DNA from: Eledone cirrhosa
Taxonomy: Eukaryota
Length of the DNA stretch: 64,000 nucleotides
Assembly (NCBI GenBank): GCA_964016885.1
Contig: OZ024746.1
Location: 27,404,001-27,468,000 of the forward strand
Direction of reading: 5' to 3'
Shown: positions 43,547-56,581 of the stretch, in pieces
Layout of the letters: every line of letters begins with the position of its first letter
How positions within the stretch are numbered: the first letter of the stretch is position 1
The notes under the pieces: model-generated
The model's database searches: none
What the model saw: only the letters and a program-made list of their open reading frames with translations
Told to the model about the DNA's origin: nothing
Position numbers and translations under genes: made by a program

Positions 43547-44150
43547 AATGCGGGTAAAATTCCCGAGATCCATGGACGAGTTCTCTCCAGCGGTCTCTGT
43601 CCCTCATTATCGCTGCCATGTCCTGCGTCTCCAACAGACCAGTGTCTGTCCTTAGGGCATCAACATACGTTAACCTTGGTCTTCCTCTTCTAGTGTGTCC
43701 ATGTAGGGGCTCCTAAAGGAGCACTGAGTGCAATGTCAACTCTGGATGTCGGTGAGCATGTCCAGCTAACCTCAATCTCCTCTGTGTCACTTTTGAGCTG
43801 ACTTTTGGGATGCTCCCATACAGCTCCGAGTTTTTCATCCTCAGTGTATACTGATTAATGTTCAGTAAAGCCGCTAGAATTGGTTGAGGGCTTTCTGTAT
43901 TTGGGAGCAAAGATTGGGTATACGGAAGATGATGTGGTTGAGAGGAAGAGCAAGGCCTGGGCGGCGTGCCACAGCTTGAGATCGGTGTGGAGGTCGGACC
44001 TTCGTAGAGACCTGAAAATCCGCCTCTTCATTAATGTAGTGGAGTGCTGTATGGGTCTGAGACTTGGACACTGACCAAGAAACTCACTCAGATGGTGGAT
44101 GGGTGCTACACGAGAATGCTGAGGATGGCTCTGAACATTAATCAGTATAC
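43547..44150 (-). mobile_element. RTE LINE insertion with inverted 5' segment
   Basis: 43547-43865 is the RTE 3' end on the minus strand. 43872-44149 is the immediately upstream RTE segment on the plus strand. Both contain CTGAACATTAATCAGTATACAC. Confidence 0.85.
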
Positions 44151-45854: not shown

Positions 45855-47790
45855 AATTATTATTATTTCTATTATTATTATTATTATTTTTATTTTCTTT
45901 CATTATTGTTTCTGAGATATATCCCGAGTGTCTTCCTGACACCTAGGGCAAATACATTCACAGTGTGCATTGGTAAGCCAGTTAATACAGCACATTGATT
46001 ATAATAAAAACAAAACAAAAAACAAAACAAAAAAAACAGTATACATATCTGTGCATATGCATATGCAAATACAAGGAAGGACACCAATCCCACAGAGACA
46101 GGGCTCTTCTCAATACGTGTGCAGTACCAATCAAAACAATTTTTTGCACCTTGTGCAGAGAGGGTAAACCAGGAATCATTCGCAAATATTGTTCTGTTCC
46201 TTTCTTGATCATTCCCAGTCCTCCCACAATCACTGGTATTGTAACGGCCTTGAGGTGCCACATTTTCTCAATTTCAATAAGCAGATGTTTATATTTTCGT
46301 AGCTTGGCAAATTCCTTTGCCGCGATATTGTGATCATACGGGATGCTCATATCTATCAATAAACAGACCTTGTTATTTTGATCTTTTACAATGATGTCAG
46401 TATGTACAGGAAAGTCCTAGAGAATTGTTACTTTTTCTCCTTCAGTTACAGCCTCAGGGTGATGATTGTACCACTTGTCTTCAGCTTTGATTTTGTAATG
46501 CCGACATATTACCCAGTGTAGATATTGGCCAACTCTGTCATGTCTATATTTGTATTCTACTGGTTCTAAAACTCTACACCCAGAGACTAAGTGATCCACT
46601 GTTTCAACCTCAGTACCGCAGAATCGGCACTTTGGGTTTATTCCGTTCCTCATCACATTGGCCTGGTAATTACGAGCTTTGATCTTGGGCAGCTAAGATG
46701 AAGCCTTTACTCTCCGCCTTTAGCCCTGAACTACGTAGCCACTGATGGGTGTGCATTTGGTCAACATCAGCTTGTTTGCTACAGGCCACATATTTGCCAT
46801 GCAGAGATTTCTGCTCCCAATTTGATGCTAATTGTCCTTGCCCTTTTGCTTTTGCCAGTGATTTTATGTGCCTAGCATCAGTTGCAACAGTTTCTTTAGT
46901 CTGTCCAGCCTGGGTATCAAGCATGAGATCAGTAGCATATGTTTTCCTCTCCTTCAATATAGAATGAAGCTTCTTACTTCTCTCATGCTTTTCAACAAGT
47001 TTCAGCATACAGTCGTTAGTTGTTTCAAGGTATTTGGCCAGTCCAATGATGGTGGTCTTGTAAGTAAGTTCAAATTAGATCAGGCCACGGCCTCCTTGAG
47101 TTCTAGGAAGGTAAAGACGACCCACATATGCTTTTGGGTGGTGCATCTTATTACAGGTCAGTAGCTTATGGACTTTGGTGACAATTCTTTTGATTTCACT
47201 CATATTCCAGTTGAACACACCGAAGCTATAAGTGACAACTGCGACTGCCAAGGAATTTATGGCTAGCAACTTGTTACGAGCGTTTAGTTCTGATCTCAGA
47301 ACTGCATGTACTCTCCTGTAACATTCTTTCCTTATCCTCTCTTTCATACTGGCATGCCAGAGCCCTCATTAATCCCTAAGTATTTATAGGTTTGTTCCTG
47401 CTCAAGTTCCTTTATGATTGTTTCAGCATCCAATTCAACTGAGTCTGATTTGACAAGCTTCCCCTTCTTGAAAGTGGCTTTTGCACACTTGTCAAGTCCA
47501 AACTCCATCTTGATGTCATCGCTAAACGTTTTTACTGTCCGCAAAAGGCCTTCCAGTTCGTCATTATCTTTGCAATATGGCTTCAAATCATCCATATAAA
47601 ATAGGTGGCTTATTTTTTTGTTGTCAATTCTATAACCGTACCCTGTTCTATTAAGTTCGGATGTAAGGGGTACTAAAGCAATGCAGAAAAGCAAGGGTGA
47701 AAGTGAGTCACCCTGAAATATACCACAGTTGATGTTTATATTCCTAGAGCACAGTACCCTAGTGGAATGAGACAATTGGAGATTTGTGTT
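45855..47790 (-). mobile_element. 5'-truncated R4/Dong-like LINE with (TAA)n tail
   Basis: RT motifs GIFQGDSLSPLLF and LFYMDDLK, CCHC finger CRFCGTEVETVDHLVSGC, RLE region IDMSIPYDHNIAAKEFAKLRKY, with several frameshifts. (ATT)n at 45855-45888 on the plus strand. Confidence 0.9.
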
Positions 47791-48828
47791 CGGGCATCCG
47801 AGTCCCAAATCCAAAAAGCTTTGGGACATGTGTGGGCAAAAAAACCCCACATCAGACGTGGGCAGAAATATGGAACCGTGGACGTATTCTTTGAAACACC
47901 ACAGGAGGCCAGAGAACACTCCATGGCCCCATTAAGAAGTGACGACTTTACACTCGTCCCAAGCTATTGTGGCCAGAGACTCGTGAAGATCAGGGTGACC
48001 CACGTTCCACCGGCCATCGAAATTCCCTGGCTAATAGCTGCCGTCCTCGCCGGCATCGAAGCCAACACCAAGATAATCGAAATAGCGAAAGAAAAGCAGG
48101 AGAACTGGTCCGGATCTGGGTTGGAGCTCCTGATACAAGCGAACCAAAAAAGCATTGAGGAGATCCCAGAGGTAATAGACCTCGCTGACGGCAGCCACCT
48201 CACCGTAATCGTCGAGGGCAGAAGCCCTAGGTGCGTCGTTTGTGGTGAAGGAACCCACCTAAGGGCTTTCTGCCTTCAGGCTAAAAGGTTGAGGCCACCT
48301 CTCTTACCCACCCCAGTGACTCAACCATCAACACCACCAGCAGCAGAGATGGCAGCAACAACTGTAGCAGCAACAACAGAAGCAACTGTAACAGCAACAA
48401 CCCCAGCAACAGTAGCAAAACCAACACCATCATCACCCAACGCGCCAGAACTAGCACCAGCGCCTACACCATCCACCACACCACAAACAAAACCAACGTC
48501 TGTGGAGGATTTTCCACTACCCTGCCTATCACAACTGGAGACAGATTGTGACGACGAGGAGTGGGAAACGGTATCAGGAAAAAAGAAAAAAAGAAACCAA
48601 AAAGAAAATATTCTCTTCCCTCCCCCTCCAAAAACAAAATACAGAGGGGAAACAAATAAACTATCAAACACCAGCATCACCAACCCCATCACCACAAAGA
48701 CCAACACCATCACCATCATTAACCCCAACACCACCATCACCAACACCACAAAAGTCACCAAAAAGCGAAACAGAAACAAACCCACAACAAACGCAAACAA
48801 AACAAAACAAAACAACACTACACAGCAT
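47791..48828 (+). pseudogene. Isolated ORF1 fragment of a second Tx1-like family
   Basis: RASESQIQKALG...VPSYCGQ...THVPP...CVVCGEGTHLRAFC is homologous to ORF1 at 50061-52158. No ORF2 follows. Confidence 0.85.
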
Positions 48829-48831
48829 TAA

Positions 48832-49825
48832 ATTATTATTATTATTGTTGTTATTACTCCTTGAGTCTCAGTCATTGATGTTAGTTAACCGGAAAGTCCG
48901 TTGGAGTGAATATCAAGCCACTACCTGCAGCCTCAGATATTCAGGACGTATGGGAGGGTTCTTGCTGTTCCCAGCAAGCATGCTTTTTGAAGCGTTCCAA
49001 AAAGCGTGAAGGGGCCGATTTTCTTTAACCATCCCTGGAAACTTTTGGAGATAGTCCCCAGTGCGCCTATGACAATCGGGATCACTTTGACTTTGACTTC
49101 ATGGCAGTTCCAAATCCTTTTTACCTCCCACTTTAAGTCCTGGTATCGGTTAATTTTCTCCCTCTCCTTCTCTTGCACTCTCGTGTCGAATGGGCAGGCC
49201 ACATCCACAATCAGACACGATCTTTTTTCTTTGTCTACAACCACCAGGTCAGGTCTATTGTGTTCCAGTTTCTTGTCCGTCTGTATCCTAAAATCACACA
49301 GCACCTTCACCTGATCGTTCTCCATCACCGCCTCTGGCTTATGCTCATACCATTTCTCAGAATGTGGTAAATTGTTTACTTTGCACAGGTGCCAGTGGAT
49401 CACCCTGCCCATCACATCATGTCTCCAGCCCTTATAGTGGGTCTGGGCTAGGTGTTTACACTCGGATACAATGTGAGCCACAGTCTCCTCTCTCTCCACA
49501 GATCCTGCACAGTGGGCTAGCCTCCTCCTTGTAAATATGGTGGTTCAACCACTTCGTATTGAGGGCCTGCTCCTGCGCAGCCATTAACATTCCTTCTGTA
49601 GCCTTTTTAAGGTCTCCTCTTCTCAACCAGTTCCATGTCTGTGGATCTCTAAATTCAGTTTTCTCAAAGAAGGTACTATGAAGGGATTTTTCCTGAAGGC
49701 TGCTCTTTCTCCTTGATGTTATTTCCTCCTTGGACATCCCCTGGCCTATTGTCCCCTCCTTCAGTACAGTTCTGAGCATTGGCTCCTTACTATCAGTCAC
49801 GTATTTGTGTAGGTTGTTTTTCTCC
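48832..49825 (-). mobile_element. 5'-truncated R4/Dong-like LINE (different subfamily) flanked by (TAA)n
   Basis: AAQEQAL, CRICG...ETVAHIVSEC finger (frameshifted) and RPDLVVVD...IVDVACPFD...EKINRY endonuclease. (ATT)n on both sides. Confidence 0.9.
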
Positions 49826-50060
49826 TTATTATTATTATTATTATTGAATGCCATGGTTGACGGAGGCTCGGCTCTGTAAGGTATAGTAATTTTTAACCGT
49901 TAAAACAATTGTAAATTGTTTAAAACTTGAACCAAATTGTTGATAAAGACACCCTCCTCCTCGTGAGAGGGGTCTTTCTGTCCGTTATTTGGCCCTTCGG
50001 GGTTAAATAATCAGTTATTGGGGTTTTGTACCCAAAATTTCATTTTAAACAAAAAACAAC

Positions 50061-52158
50061 ATGGCTACGAAAAAGAAATTTCATACGTCACTCCCACTCA
50101 TTCCGTCTTCTTCTTCCTCAATCATCACTACAGCAGAGAGAAGATTGTCTCTCTCCCTCCCTTCTTTAAATGTGTCTCTCTCCCTCCCTTCTCTTTCGCA
50201 AGTGACGAAAGAAAAGAAAAGTCTCGTGCAAAGCGTGCAAGGTTTCTCCACGACGACGACGACAGCGACGAAACAGGTGTGCGGGAAATACGAAAACCCA
50301 GTTCATTCGTCTGACGTCAGGAATAATAGCAGTAGCAGCCGTAATAACAACAGCAACAGTGACAATGAAAACAACAGTAGCAGCCGCAACAGCATCACCA
50401 GCAGCATAAACAACAACAGCATTAGCAGCAGCAACACCAACAACAACCACAGCAACAGCGGCGGAGGCAGTAGTCGTAGTACCTGCAGCAACAACAAAAG
50501 TACCAGCAGCTCTGACGACAACAACAACAGCAGAGAAAAACCAATCTCATTTGCAGGTATTGCGAAAAACTTGGAAACAATCCTCATAACAAATGAGGAA
50601 TTAGAGGAAGCGAAGAAGATGGTGACAAAGAACGGACACCGAGCAATCTGCAAGGCAGCGAAAAATTTTTTCGAAACCCAAGAGCACTGTACGGTCACGT
50701 ACCGTACAGTAAGTACAAAATCCCGTAGGGTGGAAAGAGCCACAGAGGCCCAAATACAAAAAGCCTTGGGGTCTGTGTGGCAGAGGAAAACGGACATCAC
50801 CCGAGGCAAAAAATACGCCACCGTAGATGTACTTTTTGCCACACCCCAGGAGGCAAAGGCCCAATCAGTAGTGACCCTAAGGAGCGAGGAAATGGTGTTG
50901 GTGCCCTCCTACTGCGGACAAAAAAATTGTGAGGGTCAAACTGACCCACGTCCCCCCCGGAATGACCCCTTCTTGGCTGGCCGCGTCTGTCCTCGTCGGA
51001 ATCGAGGACAAAACAACTGTACTGCAAGTACAGAAAAAAGTAAGAGAAGATTGGGTCGGCTCCTCCATTGAGATGCTAATCCAAACCAACCAGGAGTGCA
51101 TCGAAGCTATCCCGGATGTGATAGACTTCGATAACGGCACTCAACTGCCCATAAGTGTTGAGGGCAAACGCCCGAAATGCTTTCGCTGTGGATCGAAGAC
51201 TCACCTCAGGGCCTTCTGCAACGAGAAGACCCTGAGAAAGGAGAAAACCCCCCTCCTTCCGAATCCGGCTCCACGGCTACCAGCAACAGGACAAGCGGCA
51301 ACCAGGAACGATAGGTCCGTGGCACCCATACCCACTCCACGGAAATCAAAGACAGCAGCAGCAGTGGAAATATTAACAACAACAACAGCAATACCAAATG
51401 CAGCTGCAACAGAGACTCCAGTGCAAACATCACCAACAACAACAAGTGAAAGAGTGGAGCTGGTACCCCTCCCCGACCTTACAGAATCAGACATGGAGTG
51501 TGAGGTGGGAGAGGGATGGCAAAAGGTCGTAAGAAGGCACAAACGCAGAAGCAGCGCATCGTCGCCTTTGAAAAGGGAGGAAAGAAATGAGAAAAGGGTA
51601 AAGTCTACTGCAAAGAGACCCACAGCAGCAACACCACCAACACCATCACCACCCACACCAGCACCACCATCACCACCGGCGACAACCCCACCGCCAACAA
51701 CACCTTCAACACCACCACCACAAGCACCAACATCGCAAACACAACAACAAAACACACACACCCAGCAACAACGACAAGAAAATAGCAGAACCACACCCCA
51801 CCCCCAGAAAAACAAATGCACGGCAATAAACACACACAACAAGAAACTAATGACTTACATAATTGAACACACAGACATTTCACAACAGGACTACATAATA
51901 CCAGCACCAATCAAAACGCCAACTAACATAAGACTGCTAAAAATAGCACAGAAACAATACACAAACATTAAAACGAAATTCCCCAACGCAGTTGGTGATT
52001 TCAGGGACCTAGGAGGAACCTTCAATCGAAGAGTATATTCAGACATTCTCTTAGAAGAGCCGACGACCAGCCGAAGGGACGATTCAACGGTCCCTTCACC
52101 AGACGATCAAGTGAAAAGGGATGTAAAAACCATCCCTCCTCTACCAAAAGTACGGTAA
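50061..52158 (+). CDS. LINE ORF1, gag-like nucleic-acid-binding protein with CCHC knuckle; one frameshift at 50920-50926
   Basis: Joins ORFs 50061..51071 and 50929..52158. Contains CFRCGSKTHLRAFC and WQKVVRRHKRR. The paralog at 47.8 kb reads through the frameshifted position in one frame. Confidence 0.8.
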
Positions 52159-52192
52159 GTGGTCTTTCCCATCTTTTCCACTCTATTTAAAC

Positions 52193-55100
52193 ATGACCTC
52201 ACTCAGAATAGGCAGCATAAATGCGCGTGGCTTGGGGTCGTCATGGAAGCAGGGTCACCTGCTCAACGACCTCAGGTCACTAAACATAGATGTAGTGGCC
52301 ATCAGCGAGACCAGAATCTCCGAAGCACTGGCCTTCGCACCGATCTTCGGCGGCTACGATGTGTACGCATCTCCCAGCCGTCCTGGATCGGGTGGAGGAG
52401 TTGCTGTGCTTTTTCGGAGAGGTTTGGATCTCGCCATACGGGCCATCTTCCTGGACCCAGAGGGTAAGCTGGTGGTGCTGGACGTGACCAGCGGAGACGG
52501 GCAAGCTTTCAGGCTAGTGGCCGTCTATGCCCCGACAGGAGCAGGGCGGCCTGATTTCTTCCGGCGTCTGGAGACCTTTCTTGGAACGTCCCGCTCTTTA
52601 GTGTTAGTGGGCGACTGGAACGGGATCTTAGATGCACGCTGGGACTGTGTGGGATTAGCGGATAGGGGTGGAGGGTGCAAGAGCCTCACCAACCTGCTCA
52701 GGCGTTTTGAACTGTCCTACAGGTACCGATTGGATTTCCCGAATGTGCCAATGTGGACTTGGACAAACCGCATAGGGTCATCCAGATCATATCTAGATAG
52801 AGTATTTTGTAGGGAAATAGATAGGTCTAGCATAGGCTGTCCACAATTCAAGATAGTCAGCTACACGGACCACAAATTCGTGACCTGTGTGCTTGACTTA
52901 GATAGGCTTCATAGACGAGGACCCGGCTACTGGAAGCTAAACGCGTCCTTACCAGCGCGCAAGGCCTACAGAGACCGGATTAGCGAACTAGTTAAGCGGG
53001 CGTTGACGGGGGCCATCGTCAACAACAAGTGGTGGTTTGCTCTGAAAAGAGCGATTAGAATAGAATCGATTAGGTTTAGTAAGGCTTTAGCAATAGAGAA
53101 AAATAGAGCAGAGGGAGAACTAGTTAGAAAATTAGACGAGGCGCTTAGCAAAGGCATTGCGACCGACGTGCTTGCGGCGAAATTGGCCCTTGACCAATTC
53201 TTCAATGCAAAGCACGAAGGCTGCGTTGTCAGAGCTAGGGTGCGTGCTCTCAGACACGAGGGGACGAAAGCCGTTCAATGGGCCCGAGTGGCGGAGGCGC
53301 GTCGTGGCAACAAAGCCACGATCCGGTCTTTGGTGGACCACGACGGGCGCATGCTACTCGATCCCGGGCAAATGTGTGAAGCTTTTCAGCGACACTTCGC
53401 TCAGCTGTTCGGGGGCAGCGGGGGGCCGGGTAGAGGGATGGACTTTAGTGTCTACATCGACGGACTGCCGCGGCTCTCGGCCACTGAGGCGAGGTGTTGC
53501 GAAAAGCCGATAACAGCCGCTGAAGTACGGGAGGCAATGACTGGCTGCACAAGGGGTAAATCGCCTGGTTTGGATGGTCTGCCCTATGAACTTTACGTAC
53601 AGATGCCAGACTTGTTCGGAGGCCTCTTGGCGGACGTCTACTGCAACTGGCAACAGAACGGGAGAATTCCCAGTTCTGTGAGCCGAGGAGCGGTGGCACT
53701 GCTGAGAAAGGATCCGAACAAGGGGGATAACATAGACAATTTCCGGCCCATAACTCTGCTAAACACAGAGTTTAAGATTTTGGCCAAGGTGCTAGCAAAG
53801 AGGTTGGCGCTTGTCGTTGGTGGTCTGGTGGGAGAGGCGCAGACATGCGCCATTCCCGACAGATCCATCCACGACAACCTCCACCTCATGCGATACATCG
53901 TAGAGAGGGTAGCTAGGGAACCTGGCACGGGTGGGTCCTTGATCAATTTAGATCAGTCGAAAGCTTTCGATAGGGTCGACCATCGTTACCTAGCGGCAGT
54001 CCTGAGGGCGGCTGGCTTTGGGCCCGTCTTCAGAGGCTGGATCGCTGCCATGCACAGCGACATCTGCTCTGTGGTGAGAGTGAACGGTCACCTGTCGGAA
54101 CCGTTCAACATCATGCGCTCGGTCCGCCAAGGATGTCCCCTCTCGTCCCTCTTGTACGTATTGACGCTCGAGCCATTACTGCACAAACTGGAGACGTTGA
54201 GGGGAGTCCCGCGCGAACTAGGATGCGGAAGATCCGTGTCAGCATATGCGGACGATGTCACCGTAGTGGTGTCGAACGCCAAACACATCGAGGCGATCGG
54301 CACTACACTAAGAGAATACGAAGCGGTGACAGGAGCAATGATCAACCAGGAAAAGTCAGTGGGCCTGCAGCTCGGCACCTGGAGAGGCAGGTCCATGCCG
54401 TCCAACAGCGTCGTCGGGCGCTGGACGGACGGACCGGTTAAATTGCTAGGGGTCTGGTTCGGTCCGGACCTCCAGACGGACAAAAACTGGGACGAGGTGA
54501 CGAGCAGGGTGGCTTCTCTCACCCAGAAATGGGCGGAGAGGAAGCTATCCCTGAAAGGTCGAGCGGAGGTGGCTAACGCGTACATCGCGTCTGTCATCTG
54601 CTACCGCCTAACCGTCGTACCTTGTCCTAAGCCTCGCCTGACTGCGCTGGAGCGTTTGCTCTTTCGCTTTTTGTGGAAGGGACGTGCTCCGATGGTCAGG
54701 CGGTCCATCTGTTGTCAACACCCGCTACGTGGAGGGCTGGGCATGCCGTGGCTGATGATGCGCAGGCACGCGCTCAGGCTACGACATCTCCACCTCTTCC
54801 TCGACGGTGATCAGGTGTGGTCGCCGTTTGCTAGACGCGTTTTTCCCCAGCTCGTTTCCTTGACGGAGCTGCAGTCCTGGGTCAAGCGAAGACCGAGAGG
54901 GAGCGCCTGGAGACTGGAATGTCTTCAGGCGCTCACAGCCCTCGACCAATCGGGCAATGTGATCGGTGGAAACTCCACCTCGGCGTTCTATAGAGGATTA
55001 GTGGAGGGGAAGAGCGACGACGTACTTGGGGAAACTCTAGGCGTCGACGAAAATCAACTAGCCAATCTCTTCGGAAGAACTTTCGGGCCAGGGCCTAACT

Positions 55101-55606
55101 TCCAGAAATCTCTGGCCTGGCAGTGCTACCGAGGAGCCTTGCCAGTTCGGGATAAACTCTACAGGCATGGAGGTGCCGTCAGCCGGGCATGTCCGAGATG
55201 CGCGCAGGGCGACGAAACCGTCCTGCACGCACTCGTCCAGTGTCCGAAAATTGCTGACTTGTGGGTTTATGTCGAACACCTGCTGTCGCGTTTAGGACGG
55301 ATCCAGCTATCATCTGAGTCCATCGTGAGGATTGCCCCGCCCTCCTCCTTTAGCCGGGAAGGGCAGGCAGTTTTTATCTGTCTGGTGGCCATGGCGAAAG
55401 AGATAGTATGGTGGACACGTTTGAAAGGGCTGAAGACGAGCACTTACCTCTTCGGTGATGCTCTGATTGACTTTTTCAAATTTCATTTGAAAAGGAAAAT
55501 CAGAGTAGAGAGGGAAGTGCTCTCTTCCCAGCATTTTGTTGAAAGATGGGTGAGAGAAGCAAGAATGGCCCGAGTGAATGGGCCGACTCTGAGTATATAT
55601 CTGTAA
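52193..55606 (+). CDS. LINE ORF2 (1137 aa): APE endonuclease, reverse transcriptase, C-terminal CCHC finger
   Basis: APE motifs SINARGL, ISET, VYAP, GDWN, LDRV, TDH. RT motifs KSPGLDG, FRPITLLN, DQSKAFDRV, VRQGCPLS, AYADD. GPGYWKLN linker typical of L1/Tx1. Finger CPRCAQGDETVLHALVQC. Confidence 0.97.
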   Translation: MTSLRIGSINARGLGSSWKQGHLLNDLRSLNIDVVAISETRISEALAFAPIFGGYDVYASPSRPGSGGGVAVLFRRGLDLAIRAIFLDPEGKLVVLDVTSGDGQAFRLVAVYAPTGAGRPDFFRRLETFLGTSRSLVLVGDWNGILDARWDCVGLADRGGGCKSLTNLLRRFELSYRYRLDFPNVPMWTWTNRIGSSRSYLDRVFCREIDRSSIGCPQFKIVSYTDHKFVTCVLDLDRLHRRGPGYWKLNASLPARKAYRDRISELVKRALTGAIVNNKWWFALKRAIRIESIRFSKALAIEKNRAEGELVRKLDEALSKGIATDVLAAKLALDQFFNAKHEGCVVRARVRALRHEGTKAVQWARVAEARRGNKATIRSLVDHDGRMLLDPGQMCEAFQRHFAQLFGGSGGPGRGMDFSVYIDGLPRLSATEARCCEKPITAAEVREAMTGCTRGKSPGLDGLPYELYVQMPDLFGGLLADVYCNWQQNGRIPSSVSRGAVALLRKDPNKGDNIDNFRPITLLNTEFKILAKVLAKRLALVVGGLVGEAQTCAIPDRSIHDNLHLMRYIVERVAREPGTGGSLINLDQSKAFDRVDHRYLAAVLRAAGFGPVFRGWIAAMHSDICSVVRVNGHLSEPFNIMRSVRQGCPLSSLLYVLTLEPLLHKLETLRGVPRELGCGRSVSAYADDVTVVVSNAKHIEAIGTTLREYEAVTGAMINQEKSVGLQLGTWRGRSMPSNSVVGRWTDGPVKLLGVWFGPDLQTDKNWDEVTSRVASLTQKWAERKLSLKGRAEVANAYIASVICYRLTVVPCPKPRLTALERLLFRFLWKGRAPMVRRSICCQHPLRGGLGMPWLMMRRHALRLRHLHLFLDGDQVWSPFARRVFPQLVSLTELQSWVKRRPRGSAWRLECLQALTALDQSGNVIGGNSTSAFYRGLVEGKSDDVLGETLGVDENQLANLFGRTFGPGPNFQKSLAWQCYRGALPVRDKLYRHGGAVSRACPRCAQGDETVLHALVQCPKIADLWVYVEHLLSRLGRIQLSSESIVRIAPPSSFSREGQAVFICLVAMAKEIVWWTRLKGLKTSTYLFGDALIDFFKFHLKRKIRVEREVLSSQHFVERWVREARMARVNGPTLSIYL

Positions 55607-55854
55607 ACTAAAGGTGGAAAACTGGGAGAGGGCACTTGCCTTGGTGGTCAGGGTCATTGTGGCTTTTTACTGGGCTTTCTCCACAAATGTCCCTCCGAAG
55701 TCTCCCCCCTATTGGGGAATTTTTCATTGTTATTTTTTGTTACATCCTCTGTTTATGTTTTTTACACGCAGAAATGCCCATTTGTACCGTCCTGCATTGT
55801 CCTGCACTGTCCTTAATGTCTACTTTATGTAAACCCTTGTGGTTAATAAAGAAA

Positions 55855-55946
<92 letters not shown>

Positions 55947-56035
55947 ATCATTATTATTATTGTTGTTGTTGAACTGATAGATTGTATGAAAAAGGACTGT
56001 TAGTATTTAGTTGAAACACAGTTGTGTAGCCTCTG

Positions 56036-56473
56036 ATCACATATCTGTATGGTAGTCTGTGTATATCACATATCTGTATGGTAGACTGTGTATATCACAT
56101 ATCAGTATGGTAGTCAGTGTATATCACATATCTGTATGGTAGTCTGTGTATATCACATATCTGTATGGTAGTCTGTGTATATCACATATCTGTATGGTAG
56201 TCTGTGTATATCACATATCAGTATGGTAGTCTGTGTATATCACATATCTGTATGGTAGTCTGTGTATATCATATATCTGTATGGTAGTCTGTGTATATAA
56301 CATATCTGTATGGTAGTCTGTGTATATCACATATCTGTATGGTAGTCAGTGTATATCACATATCTGTATGGTAGTCTGTGTATATATCATATCTGTATGG
56401 TAGTCTGTGTATATCACATATCTGTATGGTAGTCTATGTATATATCATATCTGTATGGTAGTCTGTGTATATC
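56036..56473. repeat. 29-bp minisatellite, about 15 copies
   Basis: Unit CACATATCTGTATGGTAGTCTGTGTATAT repeated head-to-tail with few substitutions. Confidence 0.95.
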
Positions 56474-56581
56474 AGAGGCTGAAAGAGAATATATAACAAC
56501 TGAAATAATTATGAAGTCTCAACAGATTTCACAAGAGAACGTTCAGAGATACAGCGAGATAGAGATAGATAGAGAGAGAGA

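Follow-up and report, generated by a model that had tools for sequence, protein, structure and literature searches.

Several long interspersed elements (LINEs) of the Tx1 clade have been described to insert into microsatellites. Kibi was found in (TC)n, Koshi in (TTC)n and crocodilian Tx1 families in (TTCC)n and (TTTC)n (PMC4494074; PMC3812793; all papers are cited here for the sections that were covered), and a telomeric repeat completes the list of repeat targets of Tx1 elements in this literature. Here, a LINE located at positions 49846-55856 on the plus strand of a 64,000-nt stretch of the Eledone cirrhosa genome (the window; assembly GCA_964016885.1, contig OZ024746.1, positions 27,404,001 to 27,468,000) was analyzed. 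The element is an L1-group LINE of the apurinic/apyrimidinic endonuclease (APE) type with two open reading frames (ORFs). It belongs to a family that is young, has about 3,000 full-length copies and is located almost exclusively in ATT-repeat microsatellites, which largely confirms what an earlier note on this DNA had proposed.

Kibi, Koshi and the crocodilian families are likewise two-ORF, APE-type LINEs of the L1 group with the microsatellite at both ends. The element differs from them in its (ATT)n tract, which consists of A and T only instead of being a pyrimidine tract, and in its invertebrate host. The same class of microsatellite is used by Dong elements of the R4 clade, which were described from (TAA)n in insects, molluscs, cnidarians and an ostracod (PMC7998251; PMC3812793) while Dong-like elements occupy the same tracts in the genome studied here. 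Dong encodes a C-terminal restriction-like endonuclease (RLE) in its single ORF, whereas the element has two ORFs, an N-terminal APE domain and the opposite polarity. The TRAS and SART elements in the telomeric repeats of Bombyx are comparable in that two LINE lineages share one tandem repeat in opposite orientations and form mixed arrays (PMC10088271; PMC1919474). However, both are APE-type elements of the R1 clade at telomeres, whereas the endonucleases are unrelated and the microsatellites dispersed in the present case.

The family and its flanks in the genome

The genome comprises 3.0 Gb and is rich in microsatellites. The 26-nt 5′-end of subfamily A, to which the window copy belongs, was found in 1,604 exact occurrences genome-wide and a 37-nt 3′ motif of the family in 1,955. 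A sister subfamily B with 1,360 exact 5′-ends genome-wide has an ORF2 and a 3′ untranslated region (UTR) nearly those of subfamily A (94-97% DNA identity), combined with a distinct 5′-UTR and ORF1 (56% amino acid (aa) identity to the ORF1 of A in the best segment). The family appears to swap 5′-UTR/ORF1 modules on one ORF2. A third type of 5′-end was observed at four loci (L103:7773, L227, L055 and L169), after ATT runs in all four cases and with a related ORF1 downstream in three.

The mean pairwise distance of the 25 best full-length matches, a set chosen for likeness to the window copy, was 0.41%, and both ORFs were intact in 21 of them. In a second set of 19 copies, selected according to position among the first 30 heads of contig C1, the median identity to one intact copy was 98.9% and five copies were intact. 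Both values agree with the young age postulated in the earlier note. Near-identical sequence was also present in contigs from sequencing runs bearing other organism codes.

An (ATT)3 motif was found directly before 1,564 of the 1,604 subfamily-A 5′-ends (97.5%) and 1,278 of the 1,360 subfamily-B 5′-ends (94.0%). For comparison, the same motif precedes 39 of 127,982 positions in the window, and (ATT)6 has 443,461 overlapping matches in approximately 6 × 10^9 strand positions genome-wide. The 5′-ends of A and B are unrelated and stand on a nearly identical ORF2, and both show the same ATT flank behaviour. This survey of copies and flanks bears out the specificity for ATT tracts that had been claimed from the window; the random 5′ flanks considered as the opposite outcome were not found, since full-length copies stand overwhelmingly behind (ATT)3.

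Because ATT before the heads alone could be explained by a repeat carried in the RNA, truncated copies, flank duplications and flank continuity were also analyzed. From the first 100 3′-ends listed, 45 were retrieved because, on visual inspection, no exact A head stood where the distance to the 3′-end predicted one. Thirteen of these were full-length, all behind ATT runs, and eight were of B type, with the head behind ATT in seven and not located in one. The remaining 24 were 5′-truncated, and 12 of them abut (ATT)3 at the truncation point (11 of 23 after merging two copies with one breakpoint), compared to a window background of 0.125%. An earlier DNA search with the 3′-end had yielded mostly older copies, which were excluded from this count. 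Target preference has been defined as more than 20% of the flanks being of one type (PMC4494074), a value exceeded by both subfamilies and by the truncated copies.

A non-ATT flank duplicated after the tail was found in none of 51 full-length copies (53 candidates minus one without a 3′-end in range and one duplicate). Likewise, in none of the 52 copies with both flanks did these continue one interrupted element. Taken together, the truncated junctions, the missing duplication and the absence of a split neighbour indicate that the ATT tract most likely pre-exists as the target of insertion and is not merely a carried tail.

The sequences behind the tract were determined for 30 A heads picked by position. 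Twelve stand behind a tail belonging to their own or to a related family, eight against reversed Dong-like bodies, six behind SINE-like ATT tails (SINE, short interspersed element), three at (TTC)n-(ATT)n tracts and one at other sequence. In addition, (ATT)n directly meeting (AAT)n in inverted-repeat junctions was observed beside family members at three loci (L050, L218 and L240).

Proposed insertion mechanism and alternatives

Target-primed reverse transcription is the insertion mode of LINEs, and SART1 owes its specificity to its endonuclease. The endonucleases of Tx1L, TRAS1 and R1 are also sequence-specific in themselves (PMC1919474). For the family described here we consider it likely, with a probability of roughly 0.7, that a young high-copy LINE inserts into (ATT)n in fixed orientation, with its ORF2 endonuclease nicking the AAT strand and its tail pairing with the target. 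In a tract that is already present, the APE domain would cut the AAT strand immediately ahead of an ATT unit. The (AUU)n tail of the RNA would then pair with the freed end and prime reverse transcription. A second nick would lead to a duplication of 11-20 bp, which, judging from the SINE-like partner described below, would be concealed within the repeat. The joining of the 5′-end could be aided by repeat pairing, perhaps as full-length transcripts begin inside the upstream tract. Each insertion would bring a new ATT tail and thereby a landing pad for the family, its relatives and Dong-like elements, resulting in nested arrays. In some truncated copies, the tract may have been lost through 5′ joining or later deletion. 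We infer that the endonuclease is ATT-specific and that the family is active at present.

The start of the RNA within the upstream tract is suggested, not demonstrated, by the register of the junctions. Full-length 5′-ends read ATT/G (the slash marks the junction), whereas 8 of 14 truncated junctions abutting ATT end in ATTA or ATTAT, five are compatible with ATT and one has an extra base. The underlying junction totals (55 and 42) include internal deletions and stem from loci selected near ATT tracts, and for the LINE only the register of the 14 was used.

The SINE-like repeat has a length of ~190 nt, and its 3′-end resembles the final ~25 nt of the LINE followed by ATT. For its 30-nt head, 37,435 matches were found, including satellite expansions. 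A search of the head against Rfam gave no tRNA match, hence the name SINE-like. Thirty loci were analyzed, of which six satellite loci were dropped; a recognisable 3′-end was present in 16 of the remaining 24. If the ORF2 of the LINE mobilises this repeat, the nick would lie just before an ATT unit and the specificity in trans would be looser. A similar relation was described in crocodilians, where Tx1-Mar is a target-preferring LINE with tandem insertions and its partner SINEU shows a weaker target preference (PMC4494074). The target there is a Mariner miniature inverted-repeat transposable element, whereas the SINE-like repeat here is found at bare ATT motifs. The head of the SINE-like repeat is also amplified as a 45-bp tandem satellite (L260-L265, contig C1 at ~1.98 Mb, and also near 10.53-10.58 Mb).

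Several observations weigh against a tract-specific insertion. Of the 24 truncated copies, 12 are without (ATT)3 at the 5′ junction. Two of these 12 are in ACT/ACC-type tracts, three in unassigned sequence and one abuts a related LINE; the five that meet a reversed Dong-like body and the one with an ATT run at a distance of 8 nt are in line with the use of ATT tracts. With looser matching, duplicated flank blocks of 41-42 nt were found in 2 of 52 copies, and duplicated flanks of ~100-250 nt in two arrays, so that recombination or long duplications are indicated as well. The register of truncated junctions differs from ATT/G, so that part of the 97.5% may be carried in the RNA. No empty allele was observed; the contig joints listed at one sibling locus (four sets) skipped repeats, with none spanning the element. 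For the window locus, three contig sets and one raw Hi-C run were used, in which repeats were skipped and no listed joint crossed the element. Finally, only 3 of 24 SINE-like copies are near (ATT)3, and exact duplications of 11-20 bp, starting at a mere ATT or ATTATT, were found in 9 of 16 (none in shuffled pairs). The enzyme may therefore not need a long ATT tract.

The SINE-like duplications also form the basis of the best surviving alternative, in which a short ATT or ATTAT motif suffices for the endonuclease, comparable to TTTT/AA for human L1. The tract specificity of the LINE would then result from RNA-DNA pairing at both ends, through the tail and through repeat brought along at the 5′-end by read-through transcripts, and from local re-insertion and selection. 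The change of register between full-length and truncated junctions and the weaker preference of the crocodilian SINE compared to its Tx1 partner fit this explanation as well. On the other side, truncated LINE copies carry no 5′ repeat that could pair, yet half of them abut (ATT)3, and a visible duplication of the SINE type was found in 0 of 51 LINE copies. Moreover, the partnership of SINE and LINE is deduced from ~25 similar bases, and another relative may move the SINE. A motif-level endonuclease is regarded as unlikely.

Far less probable is an unspecific insertion followed by passive survival in repeat-rich dumps and tandem amplification by unequal recombination. In its favour, about 40% of the position-picked heads (12 of 30) form tandems with members of their own or a related family, and arrays with duplicated flanks are present. 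However, (AT)n covers 4,388 bases of the window and (AAT)n 96, yet the heads adjoin ATT. The flanks of non-tandem copies are diverse, the polarity is fixed, and many copies are diverged by less than 1%, which leaves little time for sorting. Passive survival is thus largely refuted. Tandem copies with 40-250 flank bases repeated per unit were observed at L017/L018, L025-L027, L101 and L156/L157 and could represent long target duplications or unequal recombination.

An (ATT)n carried at both ends by the element itself into random sites would fit the exact ATT/G register and the 4-12 units at many non-tandem heads, but it predicts duplicated or continuous outer flanks (0 of 51 and 0 of 52) and truncated junctions free of ATT, whereas 12 of 24 have it; this explanation is hardly credible.

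Anatomy and classification of the window copy

The window copy, entirely on the plus strand, directly follows the target-side tract TT(ATT)6, whose (ATT)6 occupies 49828-49845 and abuts the first base at 49846. The 5′-UTR of subfamily A (49846-50060), with the first bases identical in the 1,604 genomic copies, is followed by ORF1 (50061-52158), ORF2 (52193-55606) and a 3′-UTR (55607-55856) with an AATAAA just ahead of its end. Over its last ~25 nt, the 3′-UTR resembles the 3′-terminal sequences of related LINEs and the SINE-like repeat. A 3′ tract at 55857-55971 consists of (ATT)15, followed by (GTT)n and mixed ATT/GTT units. Its tail and target portions are not separable, and there is no poly(A). 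The pure (ATT)n reported for both ends is thus present directly at the element, but on the 3′ side it extends only to 55901. The end of the element, placed at 55970 in the earlier note, had to be moved to 55856, since the sequence up to 55970 includes other microsatellite.

A frameshift of one base, located in a run of A near 50920, splits ORF1 into pieces of 336 and 398 aa; its N- and C-terminal parts are of low complexity. In most close siblings it is a single frame of 696-699 aa. Programmed frameshifting was considered and rejected, since most siblings are in frame. ORF1 was broken in the same region in 2 of the 24 best matches and in at least 3 of the 19 position-picked copies, and slippage in this A run, or an error of sequencing there, is the suggested cause. 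A zinc knuckle of the form CX2CX4HX4C starting at 51178 was read from the sequence, although the Pfam scan of ORF1 recovered neither an RNA recognition motif (RRM) nor a knuckle.

The 1,137 aa of ORF2 are free of stops, as had been claimed, and contain the APE domain (approximately aa 5-230), the reverse transcriptase (RT; aa 511-754) and a C-terminal CCHC motif (aa 1000-1017). Pfam identified Exo_endo_phos, RVT_1 and zf-RVT. The listed motifs of the APE (SINARG, ISETR, VYAP, GDWN, YLDR and YTDH) and of the RT (LDQSKAFD, RQGCPLS and YADD) are all present. However, position 176 is a private Tyr in the window copy, whereas 23 of the 24 siblings, as well as all 27 distant homologues, have the APE aspartate there, and two residues are missing at aa 968. 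The 3′-UTR is without an 11-nt unit present in 22-23 of 24 siblings. The copy had been described as near-intact; it is full-length, but not intact. Based on the frameshift, the Tyr176 and the two-residue deletion, it is probably not autonomous.

The order of an N-terminal APE, a central RT and a C-terminal CCHC in ORF2 assigns the element to the L1 group on the basis of its domains; an RNase H family match was not found in the Pfam scan of ORF2. The best solved relative of ORF2 is human L1 ORF2p (PDB 9k6g and others; E-value 6e-51 over aa 5-855). R2 proteins were found with 1e-21 or weaker in this PDB search, which is a coarse test, as the full proteins among the matches are those of L1 and R2 only. 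In human L1, the APE-RT-CCHC order is the same and the catalytic residues align, whereas L1 has a poly(A) tail and an ORF1 without a knuckle. Human L1 targets are loose (TTTT/AA).

Membership in the Tx1 clade, as proposed in the earlier note, is quite probable. The knuckle-bearing ORF1 and the target specificity are consistent with it, since the ORF1 of the Tx1 clade is of type I with a CCHC zinc knuckle and an RRM (PMC5203782). The closest named homologues of ORF2 are hypothetical proteins of Argonauta hians (60% identity) and Patella caerulea (30%), and the name Tx1 was absent among the named homologues in protein searches and cluster look-ups. In Patella caerulea, eleven near-identical ORF2 homologues have consecutive locus tags, which suggests a tandem array of a target-specific relative in the limpet. 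The insertion into (TC)n or (TTC)n that defines Kibi and Koshi was not observed; the heads abut ATT, with (TTC)n farther upstream in 3 of 30. A single ORF with a C-terminal RLE, as in Dong/R4, was not found in the element either. It is therefore neither Kibi, Koshi nor Dong.

Dong/R4-like neighbours and the shared ATT tracts

The window copy is part of a nested array of ten kb (45856-55971), in which ATT/AAT tracts connect the element with a fragment of subfamily B and with two pieces of RLE-type LINEs. Directly upstream, a 5′-truncated RLE-type LINE (48857-49826, minus strand) is arranged head-to-head with the element over the common ATT/AAT tract. Its own (AAT)n tail at 48832-48856 adjoins an ORF1 fragment of subfamily B (47791-48834, plus strand) that is 84-91% identical to eight B copies. 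A second, degraded RLE-type LINE piece (45895-47790, minus strand) follows, with an (AAT)n tract of its own strand at 45856-45894. Further upstream, degraded RT-like fragments on both strands at ~43560-44140 appear by eye to be another LINE. Shortly 3′ of the element, a 29-bp minisatellite with 15 copies (94% matches) is located at 56036-56474.

A full copy of the Dong-like neighbour has a single ORF of 1,216 aa with an RT, a CCHC motif and a PD-(D/E)xK-like C-terminus, the latter two read from the sequence, and (AAT)n on both sides. Both this architecture and this target have been reported for Dong/R4 (PMC7998251), and the minus-strand neighbours are labelled Dong/R4-like by their architecture, their target and reports of Dong-R4 in Octopus, not by phylogeny. 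One review (PMC3812793) places Dong among the APE-type elements, contrary to PMC7998251. The loci studied contain 223 distinct junctions of the APE family; 60 of these have a Dong-like neighbour, which is in opposite orientation in every case. For the Dong-like LINEs, 25 of 42 alignment 5′-ends were behind (AAT)3, in loci selected near ATT tracts. In Octopus vulgaris, Dong-R4 and L1-Tx1 are among the recently active LINEs, with no mention of targets in the sections covered (PMC13282606).

In literature searches and in the covered sections of papers, which included PMC3812793, PMC4640811, PMC9115989, PMC3747384, PMC4758252 and PMC5786205, no Tx1 family specific for (ATT)n or (TAA)n was found; Repbase Reports, Dfam, subscription papers and the supplements of PMC4494074 may contain one. 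In comparison with this literature, Repbase and Dfam lying outside it, the family is a well-supported member of a type of LINE already described, with (ATT)n as a novel target and, in the tracts shared with Dong-like LINEs, a less common setting. More tentatively, with chances slightly below even, APE-type LINEs may have converged on the microsatellite of Dong, on the other strand. Mixed arrays, dispersed in their thousands, would then be built and maintained jointly by two unrelated endonucleases. In trans on the SINE, the specificity would fall to a bare ATT, and the three would form an undescribed trio. If true, this trio would represent a natural experiment on enzyme specificity versus RNA-guided pairing in the targeting of LINEs.

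The value as an integration tool, which had been suggested for the endonuclease, is modest, because the target is a common repeat and no unique site. The contrast between the tract level of the LINE and the motif level of the SINE-like repeat makes the mechanism of microsatellite targeting directly testable. Through this finding, (ATT)n joins the known targets of LINEs of the APE type, with strict strand-specific targeting and thousands of young copies in a cephalopod genome, whereas the activity of cephalopod LINEs has been discussed without reference to target sites in the literature sections covered. It would also account for the way in which ATT/AAT microsatellites and nested arrays of LINEs promote one another in this genome.

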